Positions 7,717 to 58,341 of a stretch of DNA of 64,000 bases are shown piece by piece. The stretch spans positions 11,329 to 75,328 of the forward strand of contig CAYJRN010000005.1 of the NCBI GenBank assembly GCA_964372915.1, given 5' to 3'. The translations under genes and the position numbers were made by a program. The DNA comes from an uncultured Planctomycetales bacterium (lineage in GTDB: Bacteria > Omnitrophota > Gorgyraeia > Zapsychrales > JAHFFX01). Numbering within the stretch: the stretch's first letter is position 1; every line of letters begins with the position of its first letter. The notes beneath the pieces are model-generated. The model saw only the letters and a program-made list of their open reading frames with translations, did not search any database and was not told the origin of the DNA.

Positions 7717-9240
7717 TTACGGCTTAAAGGAAGAAAAGGTTAATAAGGTCCTTTGGACAGCCCGTTGCCAGCCGGCATACAGCCCTTCCCGCGTCTTAGC
7801 GGCCATCGACGGAAAGAAGATCCTGTCGGTTTCTTGAAGTCTTTTGAAATCCGCAGCGCCTTTCCATAATCCAACGCTGACTCCGGCTAAAATGGCCGCG
7901 CCCCGGACCGTGGATTCGATACCCCGAGGGCGAACGATTTTTGCGCCCAGCACATCCGCTTGGAACTGCATCAAAAAATTATTCTTGCAAGCGCCCCCAT
8001 CCACCTTCAACTCCTTCACCCGATGATGGAATTCCTCTTGCATCAGGTCAAAAACATCCCGCGTTTGATAGGCAATCGATTCCAGCGCCGCCCGGATTAT
8101 ATGTCGCACGTTTGAGCCCCGGGTCAGCCCCGCGATAAGGCCGCGGGCCGCAGAGTCCCAGTAAGGCGCGCCCAAACCCGTGAACGCGGGAACAAAATAA
8201 ACGCCTTGCGTGTCGGAAACGCCGCGAATCGCGCGTTCAGACTCCGACGAGGTTTTGAGGACTTTTAATTCATCGCGCAACCACTGTATCGCCGCCCCGG
8301 CCACAAAAACCGAACCTTCCAACGCATAAACGGGATTTCCTTTTTCATCACAGGCAATGGTTGAAAGCAATCCTTTTTTGGAATAAATCAGTTTCTTGCC
8401 TGTATTTAAAACCATAAAACATCCCGTCCCATACGTATTCTTAACGGTGCCGGATGTAAAACAGCCTTGTCCGTACAGAGCCGCCTGCTGATCACCCATC
8501 ACGGCCGTAATCGGAATGCCGGAAGGCAATCCGGCGACACCGTCGGCGGTCTTGCCGAAGGAACTGCCGGATTTTTGTACGCACGGCAAGACCGCCGACG
8601 GGACATTCAAAATCCTCAAAATTTCCTCATCCCATTTGAGCGTGCGGATATTAAAAAGCATTGTGCGCGAGGCATTGGTCATATCGGTCGCGTGAAAACG
8701 CCCGCCGGTCAGTTTCCAAATGAGCCAACTGTCGATGGTGCCGAAGGCAATCTCGCCTTTAAGGGCTCGGTCCCGTAAACCGGGGACACGATCCAAAATC
8801 CATTTGATTTTGGTACCGGAAAAATAAGGATCAATGACCAATCCGGTTTTAAGACGCACTGTGGCGGCATGGCGCGCCAGGCCTTTGCAGATATCGGCTG
8901 TCCGACGGCATTGCCAGACGATCGCGCGATGGACAGGTTTTGAGGTTTTGCGGTCCCAGAGGACGGTTGTTTCCCGTTGATTGGTAATTCCGATGGCGAG
9001 AATCTTGGAGGGATTGATCTTGGCTGCTGCGACGGCTTTGCGGATTACAGTTTCAACCGAACGCCAGATCTCCTCGGCATCGTGCTCGACCCAGCCGGGC
9101 TTGGGATAATACTGCTTGAACTCGCGGGTGGCACTTCCTGCGATGCGGCCCTTGGAATCAAAAACATAGGCCCTTGAACCCGTGGTCCCTTGATCGAGGG
9201 CGAGGATATACTGTTTTTTCAAGGCAAATTTTAATTTCAA
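7717..9240 (-). CDS. glpK: glycerol kinase
   Basis: 507 aa; FGGY kinase, ILALDQGTTGSRAYVFD N-terminus typical of GlpK. Confidence 0.92.
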   Translation of the reverse strand: MKLKFALKKQYILALDQGTTGSRAYVFDSKGRIAGSATREFKQYYPKPGWVEHDAEEIWRSVETVIRKAVAAAKINPSKILAIGITNQRETTVLWDRKTSKPVHRAIVWQCRRTADICKGLARHAATVRLKTGLVIDPYFSGTKIKWILDRVPGLRDRALKGEIAFGTIDSWLIWKLTGGRFHATDMTNASRTMLFNIRTLKWDEEILRILNVPSAVLPCVQKSGSSFGKTADGVAGLPSGIPITAVMGDQQAALYGQGCFTSGTVKNTYGTGCFMVLNTGKKLIYSKKGLLSTIACDEKGNPVYALEGSVFVAGAAIQWLRDELKVLKTSSESERAIRGVSDTQGVYFVPAFTGLGAPYWDSAARGLIAGLTRGSNVRHIIRAALESIAYQTRDVFDLMQEEFHHRVKELKVDGGACKNNFLMQFQADVLGAKIVRPRGIESTVRGAAILAGVSVGLWKGAADFKRLQETDRIFFPSMAAKTREGLYAGWQRAVQRTLLTFSSFKP

Positions 9241-10858: not shown

Positions 10859-11171
10859 AAACGACTTTCATGGAATGCAAAATATCATTTTTGAGATACG
10901 GACTAAGACTGTCCATGGTCAGTAAATCGACTTTCCTGTGAAATATCTTCTGCATCTCGCTTTCCGCATGAATTAAATCAATCAAGCTTTTTGTCTGATT
11001 GGCGTCAAACTTAATGAGCACATCAAGGTCACTTCTTCCTTTCTGCTGTTTTCTGACAAACGACCCAAACAACGCCATAAAAGTAATACCGTTGGCCTCG
11101 CAAAGATTTTGAATTTTTTCTATGATAGACTTTTTTCTAAATTGAATCGGCAGGGAATTGATCTTAACCAT
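10848..11171 (-). CDS. mntA: MntA-type minimal nucleotidyltransferase (antitoxin of HEPN/MNT module)
   Basis: 107 aa; GSxxRGxxxxxSDxD motif (LFGSFVRKQQKGRSDLDVLI); GGAGGT SD 5 nt upstream. Confidence 0.8.
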   Translation of the reverse strand: MVKINSLPIQFRKKSIIEKIQNLCEANGITFMALFGSFVRKQQKGRSDLDVLIKFDANQTKSLIDLIHAESEMQKIFHRKVDLLTMDSLSPYLKNDILHSMKVVYEK

Positions 11172-21546: not shown

Positions 21547-21630
21547 GCCATTCTCCTCAATTTCCTAACCTCCGCGGACTCACATCCGTGGAGGTTCCTT
21601 GTGTCTTTCGCTTACCGTTTTAAAATCCCC

Positions 21631-21674
21631 CCGCCTGTCCGCCTCGCCGAAGGCTCGCCGAGGCGGACAGGCGG
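21631..21674 (-). terminator. GC-rich hairpin after glnA (16-bp perfect stem) in glnA-glnN spacer
   Basis: CCGCCTGTCCGCCTCG ... CGAGGCGGACAGGCGG; on the minus strand followed by GGGGAUUUUAAAA. Confidence 0.5.
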
Positions 21675-21688
21675 GGCGCGAAGCGAGA

Positions 21689-35699: not shown

Positions 35700-35746
35700 T
35701 CCAAAAAAATAAAAACCCAGTCCGCCAAAAATTGTGGCGGACTGGG
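35700..35746 (-). terminator. intrinsic terminator inside the nirB operon leader (candidate ANTAR-controlled attenuator)
   Basis: Minus-strand perfect 11-bp stem CCCAGUCCGCC/GGCGGACUGGG with 9-nt loop, followed by UUUUUAUUUUUUU; 60-110 nt upstream of nirB ATG. Confidence 0.75.
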
Positions 35747-41708: not shown

Positions 41709-43457
41709 CTACCCAAACGTAAAGGCATACACCAAATCTCCCTCATTCTGAAATTCCAAACGAAGGAGGTGCGACTCGACCTTACCTTTAAGATCGATCA
41801 GATGGTAAAGCCTTCCCTCATCGAGCAGAAGCCCTGCGTCTTTCACGTCTACCCCGGCGTTTGAGTCCTCCACGGGCTCACCGTCGACAAATAGCTTGAT
41901 GCGGTCATTCTTGGCCCGCGGCCCGATCACAAGAAACACTTTGTCCGCTCTAAAGCGGATCTCTAAGGCTGCTCCTTTTTGAGCGGCCGCGAATTCCCCG
42001 GAAATTTCCCAAGCCCCTTCGTAAGCGAAATGATCTTCCGGAATGACGGAGGGGTGGCTGAACGTTTGTTTTCCGCCGGCGACCCTCTCACGGGAGGCAA
42101 AGCGTTCCAGGCGGGCTTGTCCTAAATACGTTTCAGGAGTTCGAGAATAGCGCGGGGTGAGATCTTTCAAAAAATTCGAATTCCCATCAAGGATATTCCC
42201 GGCTTCTTCTAAAAGCTGTCGGATCGCCACCTCCATTTGATCATAATGCCCCTCGCCAAAATGGGTCCGGCGGATATGTCCTTGGGCATCGATCAGGTAT
42301 TCGGCCGGCCAATAATTATTTTGATAGGCCTGCCAGGTTCGATAATCGTTGTCTTGCGCCACCGGGTAACGGATCTTAAATTGCCCGATGGCATTTTGCA
42401 CATTCTTTGTTTCTTTTTCAAACGCGAACTCCGGCGTGTGAACGCCGATGACGACAAAGTTCTTATTTTTATATTTTTCATACCAGCCGGCCACGTGCGG
42501 CAGGGTCCTTACGCAATTAATACAACTGTACGTCCAGAAATCGATAAGAACGACCTTGCCTCGCAGCCGCGCCATCGAAAAAGGTTCCGAAGTGTTGAGC
42601 CATTGGCTAATCCCGATAAATTCCGGGGCCGCGCCTAGGTCGGGGAGACGTTGCGAATCTTCAAGAATTGCTTTGGGGGTCTCTTTTTCTTGGCGCAGAG
42701 CGCTGAGTTGCTTGCTCACCGTCTCATTATTCTCAATTGTGTTCAAAAAATTCCCGTAGGAAGGAAACACGCTGAGGATCTTAAGCTGGAGGACTTTGTC
42801 ATAATTCGTATAGATGAGCCCGGCGGCCACAATCATAATGAACCCGAAGATTTGTTGGATGCCTCCGGTATATAAGGAGAAGCGTCGCATTCGGCTAAAG
42901 CCCCATGACCCGGCCAAAGAAAAAACAAAAAGCGGAATTCCAAGGCCCAGAATATAAGCGAGCGTGACCATCACGACCTTCGTATTCACCGCTTGGGTGG
43001 CGGCAAGCGTTGCGATCGTCGCTAAAATCGGACCCGCGCAGGGAGCCCACACCAAACCAGCGGAGAATCCCGTCGCATACCCGGCCATAAACCCTGTTCC
43101 TTGCTTTTGGCCGCGGCCTTGAAAAGGACTTAAAATACGGTTGATGAAATTTTCGAATTCTGTTCCCAGCCGAGGAATCATCATTGACAAGCCTAATAAC
43201 CCGATCATGATGACCGCGAGCAAGCGAAACGTATTCGCATTGATGTGAAGAGTCTTTTCAAGGGTGGAAATGGACAACGTAAAAATGGTAAAGCTTGTCA
43301 TGATCCCAAGCGTGATTCCAAAAGGCCTGCGCTTACCACCGCCTAAAGAGGCCGAAAGGACAATCGGCAACAGCGGCCAAATACACGGCGCCAAAATTGT
43401 CACAAAACCGGCGAGAAAGGAAAACACAAGCAAGATCATCATGAGGCGCCCTCCCAT
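41709..43457 (-). CDS. dipZ: DipZ-like thiol-disulfide protein (CcdA/DsbD membrane domain fused to TlpA-like thioredoxin domain and C-terminal domain)
   Basis: 582 aa; CcdA-type TM core with Cys pair, periplasmic thioredoxin fold with WTYSCINC (CxxC). Confidence 0.75.
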   Translation of the reverse strand: MGGRLMMILLVFSFLAGFVTILAPCIWPLLPIVLSASLGGGKRRPFGITLGIMTSFTIFTLSISTLEKTLHINANTFRLLAVIMIGLLGLSMMIPRLGTEFENFINRILSPFQGRGQKQGTGFMAGYATGFSAGLVWAPCAGPILATIATLAATQAVNTKVVMVTLAYILGLGIPLFVFSLAGSWGFSRMRRFSLYTGGIQQIFGFIMIVAAGLIYTNYDKVLQLKILSVFPSYGNFLNTIENNETVSKQLSALRQEKETPKAILEDSQRLPDLGAAPEFIGISQWLNTSEPFSMARLRGKVVLIDFWTYSCINCVRTLPHVAGWYEKYKNKNFVVIGVHTPEFAFEKETKNVQNAIGQFKIRYPVAQDNDYRTWQAYQNNYWPAEYLIDAQGHIRRTHFGEGHYDQMEVAIRQLLEEAGNILDGNSNFLKDLTPRYSRTPETYLGQARLERFASRERVAGGKQTFSHPSVIPEDHFAYEGAWEISGEFAAAQKGAALEIRFRADKVFLVIGPRAKNDRIKLFVDGEPVEDSNAGVDVKDAGLLLDEGRLYHLIDLKGKVESHLLRLEFQNEGDLVYAFTFG

Positions 43458-44332
43458 GAATTGTATTTCATAATCACCGGATTAAACGCCTTCGAAGCCA
43501 CGATGACCTTTGAGCCGACACAGAGATCCTGGATCTCTTCATCCGTCGCCACGACCTTCACAAAGTTGTTGCCCACAAGGATCGTCAGGATATTGACGCT
43601 TTGATCTTTATGGATTTCAACGATTTCCCCGGGAAACTTAAATTTGCCGCTTAAGCGGCTCCCGGCGAAGATCTCCCGCGGGATTCCGGTCTTGACGATT
43701 TTCCCGTCGGCCAGAACGAAAACTCTATTGGCCAGCTTAAAAACCTCGCCAAAGTCATGGCTCACAAAAATGGTGGTGATGCCGCTGGTACGATAAAGAC
43801 GAATCATCTCATCCTGTAAATGCAGCCTCATGTCCATATCCAGCGCCGCCAAGGGCTCGTCTAGAAGATAAACGCGCGGCTCCCTCAACAAAGCCCTGAC
43901 CAAGGCGACTCTTTGCTTCTGCCCGCCGGATAACTGATCCGGGTGTCGGTCTTCCAATTCTTTCAAACGCACAATTTTTAACAACGCGTCGATACGCCCA
44001 CTTTTTCTTTTATCTTCGAGCGCATATTCCAAATTCTCTCGCACCGTCAGGTTGGGAAACAACGCGTATTCCTGAAAAACAACGCCCGTCCTTCTTTTCC
44101 TGGCCGGGACATTGATTCTCTGGGCACTGTCAAACCACACCTCGCTATCGACCGTGATGACTCCCTCGTCGGGGTCCGTGAGCCCGGCGATCATCCGCAA
44201 GGTCGTTGTCTTGCCGGCGCCGGATTGACCGAATAACGTCACAAACTCACCTTCTTTAACCTCAAAGTCCACCCGCAAATCTAAAGGACCTTGAGCGGTC
44301 ATCAGTTTTTTAACCAGATTGACTCGGATCAT
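43439..44332 (-). CDS. modC: molybdate ABC transporter ATP-binding protein with C-terminal TOBE/MOP domain
   Basis: Walker A GQSGAGKTT, LSGGQKQR signature, C-terminal TOBE. Start set at MIRV (44332); the longer ORF-track N-terminus runs into a palindromic repeat. Confidence 0.82.
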   Translation of the reverse strand: MIRVNLVKKLMTAQGPLDLRVDFEVKEGEFVTLFGQSGAGKTTTLRMIAGLTDPDEGVITVDSEVWFDSAQRINVPARKRRTGVVFQEYALFPNLTVRENLEYALEDKRKSGRIDALLKIVRLKELEDRHPDQLSGGQKQRVALVRALLREPRVYLLDEPLAALDMDMRLHLQDEMIRLYRTSGITTIFVSHDFGEVFKLANRVFVLADGKIVKTGIPREIFAGSRLSGKFKFPGEIVEIHKDQSVNILTILVGNNFVKVVATDEEIQDLCVGSKVIVASKAFNPVIMKYNSWEGAS

Positions 44333-44351
44333 CGGAACAAACTCCTCAAGC

Positions 44352-44595
44352 GTGCCATTGGGGACCTTTCCAAGGCGAGTTCCCTGCCTGCCGGCAGGCA
44401 GGCGCAGCCGTCCCGCTGCATTTTTTGGACCTTTCGCGATGGCTTGTTTGCTCACCGAACCCTGTCCCGCCTTTTCTATATGGAAGGTAGGCGGGGCTGG
44501 GTTCGAAGTTCGCTTGACAAGCCATCGCGAAGGTCCTACTAGAGAAGCGGGACGTGCGAGGACTGTTTGAGCGACGAAAGGTCCCCAATGGCACG
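44352..44595. mobile_element. MITE-like 244-bp nested imperfect palindrome filling the modB-modC spacer
   Basis: Perfect 19-bp terminal inverted repeats GTGCCATTGGGGACCTTTC / GAAAGGTCCCCAATGGCAC. Internal 20-bp perfect palindrome CCTGCCTGCCGGCAGGCAGG and an inner IR pair GGACCTTTCGCGATGGCTTGT / ACAAGCCATCGCGAAGGTCC. Confidence 0.65.
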
Positions 44596-44597
44596 CC

Positions 44598-45272
44598 TCA
44601 TAAAAATCCCCTCGCGGATTTTCTGTTAAACCAGTAAAGCCCGAATAAAATACAGAAAGAAATTACGAACATCACGGCAGAATAAAAATTAGCAGTTTGG
44701 TAGTTGAGCGCTTCCACTTCGCTAAAGATCGCGATGGAGGCGACCCGCGTCGCGCCCGGGATATTCCCGCCGATCATCAAGACAACGCCGAATTCTCCAA
44801 TCGTATGGGCAAAACTCATGACGACTCCGGTCAATAAGGAATGTTTGATATTGGGGATCAGGACCCTCGAAAGTGTCTCGACCCGCGATTTACCCAAGGT
44901 TTCGGAAGCGTCGATCCAGGCTTGCGGCAGGCTTTGAAAACCCGTCTTGACGGGATTGACCATAAACGGCAGACTGAACAGAACCGATCCGACGACAAGT
45001 CCAAAAAAGGAAAACACCATTTGAACATTAAACGCGGTATCGAAGAATCTCCCCAGGAAGGATTTGGGGCCCATGGCGACCAAAATGTAAAACCCCAAAA
45101 CCGTGGGCGGTAAAACCAGCGGCATGCTCACCAGCGCCTCCAGCAGATACTTGAAACGGCTTTTTGTAAAGGCCAGCCAATACGAAAGAGGAATGCCGAT
45201 GACGACAAGAATGGCGGTGGTAACAACGGCCAGCTTAAACGTTAAAATCAGCGGAGTTAAATCGTAGACCAT
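44598..45272 (-). CDS. modB: molybdate ABC transporter permease
   Basis: 224 aa; ABC TMD with EAA-like loop; context modA-mop-modB-modC. Confidence 0.88.
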   Translation of the reverse strand: MVYDLTPLILTFKLAVVTTAILVVIGIPLSYWLAFTKSRFKYLLEALVSMPLVLPPTVLGFYILVAMGPKSFLGRFFDTAFNVQMVFSFFGLVVGSVLFSLPFMVNPVKTGFQSLPQAWIDASETLGKSRVETLSRVLIPNIKHSLLTGVVMSFAHTIGEFGVVLMIGGNIPGATRVASIAIFSEVEALNYQTANFYSAVMFVISFCILFGLYWFNRKSARGFL

Positions 45273-45661
45273 AACGAGATTTCGTTGGTTTTAACCAGCC
45301 ACTCCACGTCTTCATCTTTTTTTAATTCCAGGCGGTTGGCGGATTTGGTGGAAATAATCGCGGTGATCTCTCTTCCCTTATAATCCAAAATCACCGTCGT
45401 CAAAATTTCACGCTTTTCGATTTTCTTAACGGAGGATTGGGCGCGATTTCTAATACTGATCCGCCCGGAGAGATTTTTGGCGATGGAGACTTCCGTTTCT
45501 TTAAACAGAAGAGTTACGCGGGCGCCTATTTTCAAATAGGCGGCGGTTGTTGGCGTTTCCAAAACAATCGAGCTAAAAATATCTCCTTTAACGTCGACCT
45601 CAACGATGGACATCTGTTCGGAAGACTCAATGTTAACGATGGTCCCTTGCAATTTGTTCAC
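45257..45661 (-). CDS. mop: molybdopterin/molybdate-binding Mop protein (tandem TOBE domains)
   Basis: 134 aa; two TOBE repeats. Confidence 0.7.
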   Translation of the reverse strand: MNKLQGTIVNIESSEQMSIVEVDVKGDIFSSIVLETPTTAAYLKIGARVTLLFKETEVSIAKNLSGRISIRNRAQSSVKKIEKREILTTVILDYKGREITAIISTKSANRLELKKDEDVEWLVKTNEISLWSTI

Positions 45662-46410
45662 GGCAACTTATACCCATATTTTTTAAAAATTTCCTGCGCT
45701 TGGGGAAAAAAAAGAAAATCATAAAACGCCTTCGCCTCTGGAAGGTTCTCTTTTTCGGCATGCTTTAAAATAACCACTGCCTGCGCAATGGGGTCATAGG
45801 TCCTGGCGTCCACCTCAACCCATCGGCCTTTTTCTTTTAAGTGAGGCGCCAGCACGACCGATTTCGCGGTAAACCCCACATCCACCGCTTCTGTGGCGAT
45901 AAATTGATTCACCTGGGCGAGACTTTCGCCATAAACCAATTTGGACTGAACGTCCTTGTACACATGAGCGTGCTCAAGGGCGTTAAGCGCCTGACGCCCA
46001 TAAGGAGCGGTTTTAGGATTGGCAATGGCAACCTTCTTGATGGAAGGACTCGCGATAACCGTCAAACCTCTTGAAAGATCAATGCCTTGAAACGTCCACA
46101 GAACCAAAGCACCGTACGCATAAATCTTGGGCCGCTCATAAGCCAGGCCTTTCTTATCTAAAGCTTCCGGATACTCCACATCAGCAGAGATAAAAACATC
46201 GAAAGGCGCGCCGTTTTCGATTTGCGCCGTCAATTTTCCCGACGAGCCGATAATCGTTCGGAGTTTTATCCTCGTGTCCTTTTCAAATTCCGCTTTCAAT
46301 TCCTCCAACGCGTACTGAACATTGGCGGCCGCGGCCACCGTGATTTGCTGGGCAAACGTGAATGGCGGGAACAATAAAAAGAACATAAACGCCGGTAAGA
46401 TTTTCTTCAT
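45658..46410 (-). CDS. modA: molybdate ABC transporter substrate-binding protein
   Basis: 250 aa; signal peptide, ModA fold motifs (AAANVQYA, SSGKLTAQIENGAPFDVFISA). Confidence 0.9.
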   Translation of the reverse strand: MKKILPAFMFFLLFPPFTFAQQITVAAAANVQYALEELKAEFEKDTRIKLRTIIGSSGKLTAQIENGAPFDVFISADVEYPEALDKKGLAYERPKIYAYGALVLWTFQGIDLSRGLTVIASPSIKKVAIANPKTAPYGRQALNALEHAHVYKDVQSKLVYGESLAQVNQFIATEAVDVGFTAKSVVLAPHLKEKGRWVEVDARTYDPIAQAVVILKHAEKENLPEAKAFYDFLFFPQAQEIFKKYGYKLP

Positions 46411-46430: not shown

Positions 46431-46628
46431 CTAAACCTTTTTGCCGCCGATTAAAAAGCCCCAAACACTTAAAAGTCCTGACGCCGCCAAACCCACCCAC
46501 GACGCCCACAAGGGCACTGTCCATGGGCCTAGGACAACGGTCCACTGATTCATAATTCTTAAAAAATGCATCAAAGCCACCACCGCAAAAATCATACCGG
46601 AGATAAGACCATAAACGCGATCATTCAT
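46431..46628 (-). CDS. hypothetical small membrane protein (2 TM)
   Basis: 65 aa hydrophobic; upstream of modA. Confidence 0.4.
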   Translation of the reverse strand: MNDRVYGLISGMIFAVVALMHFLRIMNQWTVVLGPWTVPLWASWVGLAASGLLSVWGFLIGGKKV

Positions 46629-46655: not shown

Positions 46656-46730
46656 CTGGTTGCCTCGCCTGGAATCGAACCAGGATTGACAGATCCAGAG
46701 TCTGCTGTCCTACCAATTAGACGACAAGGC
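46656..46730 (-). tRNA. tRNA-Gln (anticodon CUG)
   Basis: Hand-folded cloverleaf: U1-A72 acceptor pair, D-arm GTCT/AATTGGTA/GGAC, anticodon loop CTCTGGA, T-loop TTCGATT, CCA encoded. Confidence 0.8.
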
Positions 46731-46809
46731 AATACGTCCACAATATTTATCCAGAAAGGTATTGCCCAGCCCCCACGTGTTTAAATTTCTGGGGGCAGGG
46801 CCATTATTC

Positions 46810-48207
46810 TTAAACCCCTCCTTCTCCTTGGTTGAAGGCTTCTGAAAGCCGTTGGATCGTCTTGTCTTTTCCCAGAATCGCCATCGTCTCAAAAAGTCCT
46901 GGCCCAACGGCCTTGCCGGTCAAGGCCACGCGCACCGGGTGAACAAGTTCAGCGGCCCCAATCCCCAATTCAGCGACGAGGCTCCTAAATACCTCTTCGG
47001 CAGTCGCCGCGCTAAAACTCTCGATGCCTTTAAGCCTCCCGGCTAAAAGATGAAATTCTTTGGACTTATCTTGCGTCAAATACTGCGCCCGGGCCGCCGG
47101 ATCAATGTTCACACGATCCACAAAAACAAAATCGGCCCAATCCAGAAAATCACAAAGTGTGGCCAGCCGACCTTTGAACAAGTTTACAATATTTTCTAAA
47201 CCCTGCCTATCAAAATTCTCGTCAACAAAACCTTTTTCTTTAAGAAAAGGCACAAGCAGAGTCGTAAGCGTGGCTGTATCCGTTTTCTTGATATACTGGG
47301 AATTGATCCATTCGAGCTTCTCCATCGAAAAAGCCGCTCCCGCCTTATTGATTTTCTTAATCGAAAAATTTTTGACGGCGGCATCGAGCTTCACGATTTC
47401 CTGGTTGCTGCCCGGCGACCAACCCAAAAGCATCAGATAGTTCACGAGCGCCTCGGACAAAAATCCCATCCGTTGGTATTCGCTCACGGCCACCGCCCCA
47501 TGGCGTTTGGACAACCGCCCTCCCTCTTCTCCCATAATGAGAGGTAAATGGGCGAATTTCGGCGGATTCAACCCCAACGAATAATAAATGGCCAACTGCT
47601 TAGGGGTATTGGAAATGTGGTCTTCGCCGCGAATAACGCAAGAGATGTTCATCAAGGCATCGTCCACCACGCAACAAAAATTATAGGCCGGGGACCCGTC
47701 GGATTTGATGAGGACCTGGTCTTTGATTTCGGAAGAATCAAACTGGATGTCGCCGCGGATAAGATCTGTGAACTTAAGAGGCCCGCCATCCCGCTGAAGG
47801 CGGGATGGCGGGGTCTCGCCCCGACGCAATGTCGGGGCGGACATTTTAAGAATAATGGCTTCTCCGTCTTTATAGGCCTTGCCCTCGGCCAACAATTTTT
47901 GGGCATGCTCCCGATAGATGGAAAAACGCTCGCTTTGCTTATACAATTCATCCCACTTGAGGCCCAACCACTCCATGCTGTCGAGGATTTCGTCGTAATA
48001 CTTTTTCTCGGAGCGCGTCCTATCCGTGTCCTCAATGCGCAGAATGAACTGCCCACCCTGCGAACGCGCGTACATCCAATTAAAAAGCGCCGTGCGCGCC
48101 CCGCCGATATGTAAATACCCCGTCGGACTGGGAGCGAATCTAACTCTGACCATAAGATAATCCTCTAAAATGAATTCAGTTTGGAGATTGGTGGCGCGGG
48201 GATTCAA
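46810..48207 (-). CDS. gltX: glutamyl-tRNA synthetase
   Basis: 465 aa; class I HIGH (PSPTGYLHIGGART) and KMSKS-like (LSKRHG) motifs. Confidence 0.9.
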   Translation of the reverse strand: MNPRATNLQTEFILEDYLMVRVRFAPSPTGYLHIGGARTALFNWMYARSQGGQFILRIEDTDRTRSEKKYYDEILDSMEWLGLKWDELYKQSERFSIYREHAQKLLAEGKAYKDGEAIILKMSAPTLRRGETPPSRLQRDGGPLKFTDLIRGDIQFDSSEIKDQVLIKSDGSPAYNFCCVVDDALMNISCVIRGEDHISNTPKQLAIYYSLGLNPPKFAHLPLIMGEEGGRLSKRHGAVAVSEYQRMGFLSEALVNYLMLLGWSPGSNQEIVKLDAAVKNFSIKKINKAGAAFSMEKLEWINSQYIKKTDTATLTTLLVPFLKEKGFVDENFDRQGLENIVNLFKGRLATLCDFLDWADFVFVDRVNIDPAARAQYLTQDKSKEFHLLAGRLKGIESFSAATAEEVFRSLVAELGIGAAELVHPVRVALTGKAVGPGLFETMAILGKDKTIQRLSEAFNQGEGGV

Positions 48208-55784: not shown

Positions 55785-55789
55785 AATTC

Positions 55790-55828
55790 ATTACCCCCCT
55801 TCGGGGGTAATTCGTGCCGTCACTTATG
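55790..55828 (-). repeat. REP-like dispersed element copy 3 (reverse orientation)
   Basis: ATTACCCCCCTTCGGGGGTAATTCGTGCCGTCACTTATG; pheS-pheT spacer. Confidence 0.7.
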
Positions 55829-55865
55829 TTCGCTCATTTCATTCACTCCATAAGTGACGCACTCA

Positions 55866-58227: not shown

Positions 58228-58268
58228 ATAAGTTACGTCGTCCGCCTTGGGCGGACGACGTAACTTAT
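58228..58268. promoter_or_regulatory. 19-bp perfect stem with 3-nt loop, 16 nt upstream of infC
   Basis: ATAAGTTACGTCGTCCGCC ttg GGCGGACGACGTAACTTAT. Confidence 0.6.
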
Positions 58269-58284
58269 AAGTGCGAATTTACCC
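58259..58284 (+). repeat. REP-like element copy 4 (5' half only: CGTAACTTATAAGTGCGAATTTACCC)
   Basis: Shares GTGCGAATTTACCC with copies 1 and 5. Confidence 0.55.
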
Positions 58285-58341
58285 AGCACTTATTTTGGCT
58301 TGTATGTTGTGTCGCAAAATAAGTGCTGGATTACCATAAAA

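Follow-up and report, generated by a model that had tools for sequence, protein, structure and literature searches.

Insertions of palindromic DNA between the genes of an operon constitute an already known class. Correia elements of Neisseria (CREE, NEMIS), for example, measure 100-155 bp, end in 26-bp repeats, are associated with a TA duplication and carry an IHF site. Repetitive extragenic palindromes (REPs) and the bacterial interspersed mosaic elements (BIMEs) can likewise form intercistronic hairpins, such as that between malE and malF in Escherichia coli, which can protect the mRNA upstream of them against 3' exonucleases and shift the balance of subunit expression. REPs are units of ~35 bp with a GTAG head, number hundreds of copies and are linked to RAYT proteins. 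Still smaller are the PstI palindromes of Neurospora mitochondria and the GC clusters of yeast mitochondria, i.e. very short, GC-rich and near-invariant palindromes in intergenic DNA and beside or inside RNA genes. The element analyzed here is a 247-bp imperfect palindrome between the molybdate transporter genes modB and modC in a stretch of 64,000 nucleotides (contig CAYJRN010000005.1, assembly GCA_964372915.1), referred to as the window. All coordinates are positions in this 64-kb window, and the operon lies on its minus strand. While ordinary in kind, the element is evidently an insertion specific to one lineage. With little more than even confidence, we regard it as an orphan non-autonomous transposon derivative that resembles MITEs (miniature inverted-repeat transposable elements), is present in a single or very low copy number and was stranded at the modB/modC junction.

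The closest likeness is to the Correia elements, which are also short and non-coding with perfect terminal repeats, largely self-complementary and located between operon genes. They are co-transcribed, bound or cut by RNase III, and alter the expression of their neighbors (PMC2649163). Yet Correia elements reach hundreds of copies per genome, whereas the window element has one known copy, no sequence similarity to them and a candidate duplication of 5 bp that is imperfect. ERIC/IRU, RUP and other bacterial MITEs compare well in size, terminal repeats, whole-length imperfect palindromy and transcribed intergenic location (PMC11602168, PMC10969869), but form many-copy families, often with a known parent insertion sequence (IS), neither of which is demonstrable here. 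The malE-malF hairpin of the REP/BIME type is similarly placed between the cistrons of a transporter operon. In contrast to REPs, however, the window element is 247 bp long, lacks GTAG, occurs once and follows the permease gene rather than the binding-protein gene. A first-pass annotation, made from the letters of the window, had considered a REP/BIME-like nature. This assignment was not borne out, as REP, BIME and REPIN sequences are GTAG-headed units of 20-40 bp in tens to hundreds of copies, and no GTAG stands beside the terminal repeats or beside the internal 20-bp palindrome in the window.

The evidence for an insertion comes from the six nearest ModC relatives with gene maps or DNA (68-75% ModC identity; DNA for five). 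In all six, the final base of modB doubles as the first of modC, leaving no spacer, and the junction reads TAATG (1-nt overlap) in each of the five with DNA. The order modA-mop-modB-modC recurs in two of the six. In the window, the corresponding features are:

45658-46410, minus strand: modA (NCBIfam TIGR01256)
45257-45661, minus strand: mop, gene of a Mop/TOBE protein (NCBIfam TIGR00638)
44598-45272, minus strand: modB, molybdate ABC permease, 224 aa, intact (TIGR02141, 224.7 bits)
43439-44332, minus strand: modC, ABC ATPase, 297 aa from ATG 44332 (NCBIfam; best matches ModC/PhnT2)
44333-44349, minus strand: non-palindromic 17-nt linker from the element to the modC ATG, holding the modC Shine-Dalgarno (SD) sequence GAGGAG (44347-44342)

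Read from right to left, modA and mop overlap by 4 nt and mop and modB by 16 nt, which confirms the otherwise tight operon described in the first-pass annotation. Only modB and modC are set apart, by 265 nt (44333-44597), of which the element takes 247 and thus, as had been noted, almost all. Since the ends and lengths of ModB and ModC match those in the relatives, these 265 nt represent extra DNA. By this comparison the element is evidently a lineage-specific insertion, and the overlapping modB-modC architecture of the relatives is shown to be broken here at the sequence level with both genes intact. The first-pass annotation had suggested a comparison with orthologous modBC loci. Its transposon reading would have suffered from an element conserved in all relatives within a longer modC, a situation found in none of the six, and this outcome favors it.

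The element itself is composed as follows:

44350-44596, no strand: imperfect palindromic element of 247 bp, inserted non-coding DNA (by repeats, folding and self-comparison)
44350-44370: left terminal inverted repeat, 21 bp, perfect, GCGTGCCATTGGGGACCTTTC
44576-44596: right terminal inverted repeat, 21 bp, perfect complement of the left repeat
44383-44402: 20-bp perfect palindrome CCTGCCTGCCGGCAGGCAGG, in one arm only
44427-44447: left arm of the inner inverted repeat, GGACCTTTCGCGATGGCTTGT
44517-44537: right arm of the inner inverted repeat, 15 bp perfect, extended with one indel
44456-44505: apical stem-loop with 17-bp arms (44456-44472 and 44489-44505, 88% complementarity) and a 16-nt loop
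44404-44427, plus strand: terminator-like hairpin (44404-44419, then T6), GCAGCCGTCCCGCTGC ATTTTTT, antisense to the operon
End sequence of the element: GCGTGCCATTGGGGACC

The first-pass annotation had delimited a 244-bp unit with 19-bp terminal repeats. The repeats are indeed perfect, but extend over 21 bp, and the unit measures 247 bp. At up to three mismatches, the 21-mer occurs at only two places in the 64-kb window, compared to 0.01 expected by chance. The internal 20-bp palindrome and the symmetric inner arms were recovered as described, the latter as pairs of 15 bp (perfect, 44433-44447 and 44517-44531), 17 bp (the apical stem) and 25 bp (76% complementarity), all from a repeat search. 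While the termini are perfect over 21 bp, the interior arms are only ~74% identical to each other. Terminal and inner repeats have the motif GGACCTTTC in common (44427-44436, 44361-44370 and 44575-44584), which may constitute a repeated protein-binding site, as with repeated transposase-binding sites. In the form GGACCTTTC(G), four occurrences are found within the 247 bp. The element has a GC content of 58% (window: 50%) and no similarity to the rest of the 64-kb window.

Also in line with the first-pass annotation, the entire unit is predicted to fold into one long imperfect hairpin of ~120 bp with an additional side hairpin. The RNA fold of the 264-nt spacer reaches -151.5 kcal/mol versus -94.0 +/- 5.0 kcal/mol for shuffled sequences (z = -11.5; 0 of 200 as good), the DNA fold gives z = -12.3, and the helix is kept after addition of 60 nt of each neighboring gene. 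The arms differ in length in the zone holding CCTGCCTGCCGGCAGGCAGG, the terminal repeat being 39 nt away from the following conserved block in this arm and 22 nt in the other, and this asymmetry is accounted for by the one-arm 20-bp palindrome. Deletion of a 20-nt block in that zone restores the best arm-to-arm alignment, with the exact palindrome not being the single best choice; the alignment would fit a palindrome that entered the element secondarily.

How far does this anatomy extend to membership in a transposon family? Prokaryotic MITEs are defined by a size of 50-800 bp, terminal repeats no shorter than 10-15 bp and a target duplication of 2-10 bp (PMC11602168). The element conforms in size and lack of coding capacity (247 bp; internal open reading frames (ORFs) without homologues) and in its terminal repeats (21 bp, perfect, at two sites only in the window). 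On the minus strand, the sequence runs from ...TTTTTATGAG through the element into TTGAGGAGTTTGTTCCGATGATC..., with the following flanks:

44597-44601, minus strand: ATGAG on the modB side, overlapping the modB stop, candidate target-site duplication with 44345-44349
44345-44349, minus strand: TTGAG on the modC side, equal to ATGAG at four of five positions

According to our own calculation, a match of 4/5 at zero offset and directly beside the repeats corresponds to approximately p = 0.016; alternatively, TGAG can be matched with a 1-nt offset. As a sign of transposition, this flank duplication is suggestive, not decisive.

Several observations weigh against a transposon origin. The candidate target-site duplication is short and imperfect, and it competes with the repeat ATGA at the modB stop and the modC start, from which it would follow that an ancestral ATGA overlap had received all 265 nt, SD-bearing 17-nt tail included, as an insert with asymmetric ends. 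The databases hold no near-isogenic empty site, the closest relative having 75% ModC identity. A second copy is absent from the 64-kb window. With the exact 18-mer of the terminal repeat, two matches were obtained in 185,579 GTDB genomes and 11 in the JGI metagenomes, all of them unpaired and judged to be chance, the latter with unrelated flanks, and a 17-mer gave three chance matches in IMG/VR. Comparison of the element with PLSDB plasmids and INPHARED phages by blastn returned nothing, and neither the inner repeat nor the apical arm, when scanned for, gave more than chance matches in coding DNA. At the protein level, no translated copy was present among 5.8 and 1.84 billion proteins, although the proteins of the source assembly were included. 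Furthermore, Logan contigs (k=31), which by construction hold each 31-mer once per accession (PMC12424806), cross the element in three accessions and continue for 2.8 kb or more of unique sequence to either side. A near-identical second copy in the same genome is therefore unlikely, while diverged copies may exist, as may copies in the source genome beyond the 64 kb read directly. Neither a transposase nor an autonomous partner or a matching IS end was seen, and the scan with the terminal repeat at up to three mismatches covered the window.

These negative searches are weakened by the poor sampling of the organism, as its closest homologues overall share only 74-75% identity and the best GltX and ModC homologues carrying a name (Candidatus Omnitrophota) 57-67%. 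A dispersed repeat family did not emerge from any search made. Hence, "MITE-like" refers to anatomy, whereas membership in a MITE family is not established. The earlier proposal of a non-autonomous transposon derivative is thereby upheld in part, namely for the insertion, its non-coding nature and the MITE-like anatomy, and not for a repeat family, a clear target duplication or a partner. The second copies and target-site duplications that it had proposed to look for reduce to none in the window or the databases and to flanks equal at 4/5 nt, respectively.

Four other explanations need to be weighed. Because fold-back chimeras can yield palindromes and the sequence stems from metagenome assemblies, the element could be a library or assembly artefact, i.e. 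a chimeric fold-back read built into the contig. This is highly improbable, as the window's own 90.9-kb contig at NCBI and three Logan assemblies from three runs (ERR3478687, ERR4904393 and ERR4904392; 4.6-6.6 kb including the element) are 100% identical, which rules out an assembly chimera. Moreover, the palindrome is imperfect with indels and unrelated to the neighboring genes, and modB and modC are intact with the right spacing for the SD sequence. All four assemblies represent one strain, and neither covariation nor population polymorphism can be assessed from them. Just as improbable is a coding role, either as a genuine 41-aa N-terminal extension of ModC or as small proteins of 82-83 aa, even though four of six reading frames are open across most of the element and the public ModC call (P0001; NCBI and Logan) comprises 338 aa from GTG 44455, inside the element. 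The mirror-image ORFs (44291-44542 and 44319-44570 on the plus strand, 44346-44594 on the minus strand), which the first-pass annotation had correctly dismissed as spurious, are the expected product of a palindrome. A chimeric translation of the four open frames retrieved only the window's own ModC call from 5.8 billion proteins. The 82-aa ORF matched one of 1.84 billion representatives, and this match was rejected as a product of low complexity in a 522-aa tandem-repeat translation. Judging from these searches, the element is non-coding. With respect to ModC, the remaining 119 of the 120 best homologues have 281-299 aa and only the window's own call has 338 aa. In an alignment with eight relatives, M1 of every relative corresponds to M42 of this call, the extension aligns with nothing, and the ATG at 44332 has a good SD sequence. 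Evidently, as suspected in the first-pass annotation, the public ModC protein of this organism is mis-annotated, its 338 aa including a 41-aa artefact of reading into the element, and the true start is ATG 44332, which gives 297 aa.

Of greater weight, though still rather doubtful, is an origin without transposition. Phage or mobile DNA could have been caught through illegitimate recombination or during break repair, with template switching then turning it into a palindrome, or a one-time IS could have collapsed in situ, in either case without ever having formed a repeated family. Such an event would fit the single copy everywhere searched, the viral contigs as the place where the 20-bp palindrome, and only this part, has relatives elsewhere, as well as the 17-nt non-palindromic SD tail before modC and the ATGA at both ends of the 265-nt spacer. 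Yet, one inverted duplication followed by neutral decay would not give perfect 21-bp termini beside far more diverged interior arms, an IS collapsed in situ would leave the terminal repeats alone complementary instead of the full length, and apart from the 20-mer no part of the element matches any viral contig. Unlikely, in our estimation, is a selected cis-acting RNA, i.e. an intercistronic hairpin kept to set the ModB:ModC ratio, even when taken together with its variants as an RNase III processing site, a 3'-end stabilizer of modA-mop-modB or an upstream ORF (uORF) handing ribosomes on from modB to the helix. Within its mRNA context, the structure is very stable, both genes are intact, and long GC-rich intergenic hairpins are heavily used in the same genome. 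In addition, the modC SD sequence, 9 nt upstream of ATG 44332 and 2 nt beyond the helix base, is left free in the fold, and a possible uORF opens at the modB stop:

44539-44601, minus strand: possible uORF of 20 codons, MRRAIGDLSSLKQSSHVPLL followed by a stop; the start codon, preceded by an SD-like GAGGGG, overlaps with the stop of modB (ATGA), and the frame enters the 5' arm of the hairpin

Use of this uORF is conceivable from its position. Nevertheless, the element is missing from every relative examined, the four identical assemblies offer no variation for a covariation test, there is no Rfam match and no U-tract terminator on the sense strand, and nothing in the stoichiometry obviously calls for a place between the permease and ATPase genes.

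The attenuation role raised in the first-pass annotation finds no counterpart in the sequence, since a terminator or attenuator signature (GC-rich hairpin plus U-run) is lacking on the sense strand of the element, which after the big helix reads UUGAGGAGUUUGUU. A sigma-70-like promoter is not present within the element either. With Rfam covariance models in E-value and gathering modes, the best scores in the region were at most 18 bits (E > 1) compared to cut-offs of 41-84 bits, and a Moco riboswitch or other known Rfam RNA was ruled out by scores this far below the gathering cut-offs. Over the whole window, four tRNAs alone pass. ARAGORN detected no tRNA-like gene in the element, despite an GGTTCGAA motif.

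Provided that the element is indeed an orphan MITE-like transposon derivative, 247 bp of foreign, non-coding and self-complementary DNA would have been inserted at the modB/modC junction in one lineage only, and one arm would additionally have acquired, or would carry, the separate 20-bp palindrome module. The element is probably co-transcribed with the operon and translational coupling of modB and modC is probably lost. With coupling lost, ModC synthesis would rely on ribosomes that initiate independently, immediately 3' of a very stable helix. This helix is a plausible RNase III substrate as well as a block to 3' exonucleases; cleavage and blockage would make the stability of the modA-mop-modB segment independent of that of modC. 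Speculatively, re-initiation by ribosomes at the ATG over the modB stop could open the helix for a short time. Most economically, the insertion is read as tolerated, being selfish or accidental, rather than as an adaptive regulator.

The 20-bp palindrome CCTGCCTGCCGGCAGGCAGG has a distribution of its own. It occurs exactly at 39 distinct sites in 35 stretches of 31 IMG/VR viral contigs (loci L028-L073), compared to 0, 0 and 0 matches for three composition-matched control 20-bp palindromes and 1-3 chance matches each for other 17-18-mers of the element. The viral contigs have 38-68% GC and unrelated flanks. Its 16-nt core is found at 52 distinct sites, of which 39 have all 20 nt and 10 deviate on a single side. 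As the palindrome stops at the flanks, with an extension not beyond chance and of 0 at 26 of the 39 sites, the unit is sharply 20 bp. Two of the sites represent precise insertions into tRNA genes. L052 (2239-2330) has the 20-mer within a phage tRNA-Met, in the variable loop, and deletion of the 20-mer leaves a canonical 72-nt tRNA. L029 (~8570-8650), a diverged relative, has the 20-mer at the equivalent tRNA site, so that it is heritable and a library artefact is excluded. In L059 (~480-1416), the D-loop of a tRNA is broken up by the 20-mer, and this tRNA also harbors a group I intron containing a GIY-YIG-like ORF. Flanking direct repeats are not present at these tRNA sites.

In some of the viral contigs, variant copies of the palindrome are numerous. 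L061 (3916-4125) contains a tandem array of at least ten 21-bp units (CATGCCTACCGGCAGGCAGGC), and L050 harbors eight copies with asymmetric variants ending in ...GGCACG. In L048 (2648, 2897, 10690), copies are GTAG-headed and REP-like, lie in both orientations and adjoin an Acido-Lenti-1 RNA (Rfam, 10903-10948). Perfect adjacent direct repeats flank the 20-mer in L030 at 1660 (8 bp, CACAGAGA), L046 at 3391 (7 bp, TTGCGGA) and L036 at 8396 (14 bp, TCTCGTCTCTCGCT); their lengths vary, unlike the fixed stagger of a transposase. The exact 20-mer is absent from cultured-phage records and from the top plasmid matches, and near matches in PLSDB (Ralstonia, Nonomuraea) were discarded as unrelated GC-rich sequence. 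A literature search for the 20-mer string returned no published description. Protein families are common to eight of the 35 viral loci at most. The families in common are terminase, portal and capsid, and thus no candidate partner enzyme for the 20-mer arises. At the checked viral loci, Pfam domains begin after or finish before the palindrome; for classing the sites as coding or intergenic, the crude ORF map of these loci is unreliable in high-GC DNA.

In being short, GC-rich, near-invariant, scattered and located at RNA genes, the 20-mer resembles the PstI palindromes and GC clusters. These are, however, each confined to one organelle genome, while the 20-mer spans unrelated phage contigs of 38-68% GC and a bacterium. 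Only tentatively, the 20-mer may be viewed as a discrete unit, either an ultra-small mobile insertion that enters precisely and without fixed target duplication, even in tRNA loops, or the recognition hairpin of a widespread protein. The 247-bp hairpin would then be a MITE-like element that was secondarily hit by, or carries, this palindrome. The recurrence of the 20-mer is the lead to be followed.

The window contains further long, near-perfect GC-rich intergenic hairpins of 15-22 bp, at 21629-21676, 58228-58268, 58283-58329, 35716-35746, 1455-1646 and 55785-55865. Several are built on GTCCGCC...GGCGGAC, a heptamer that occurs 24 times compared to 10.1 expected (0 of 100 shuffles reached 24), and the apical stem of the 247-bp element (GTCCCGCC...GGCGGGGC) resembles them. 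These hairpins could be terminators or a genome-specific REP-like motif. An extreme strand bias runs through the 64-kb window, with 45 of its 47 long ORFs placed on the minus strand by a crude map. Just upstream of modA, a 65-aa ORF (46431-46628, minus strand) without Pfam match is called in all three Logan contigs, and one relative (L006) has an 84-aa ORF at the equivalent place. A tRNA-Gln(CTG) (46657-46731, minus strand) separates it from gltX (46810-48207, minus strand). For gltX, the mechanical ORF has 465 aa from a TTG versus 447 aa in the public call, and the first 18 residues are probably untranslated.

Taken together, the locus represents a clean natural case of an inserted hairpin that would break translational coupling in an ABC-transporter operon, and it could serve for studying the tolerance of such insertions. 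The 20-mer may matter more than the 247-bp element: if the tentative view of it is true, it would be an unrecognized, very small mobile unit or a conserved DNA or RNA recognition site common to phages and their hosts.

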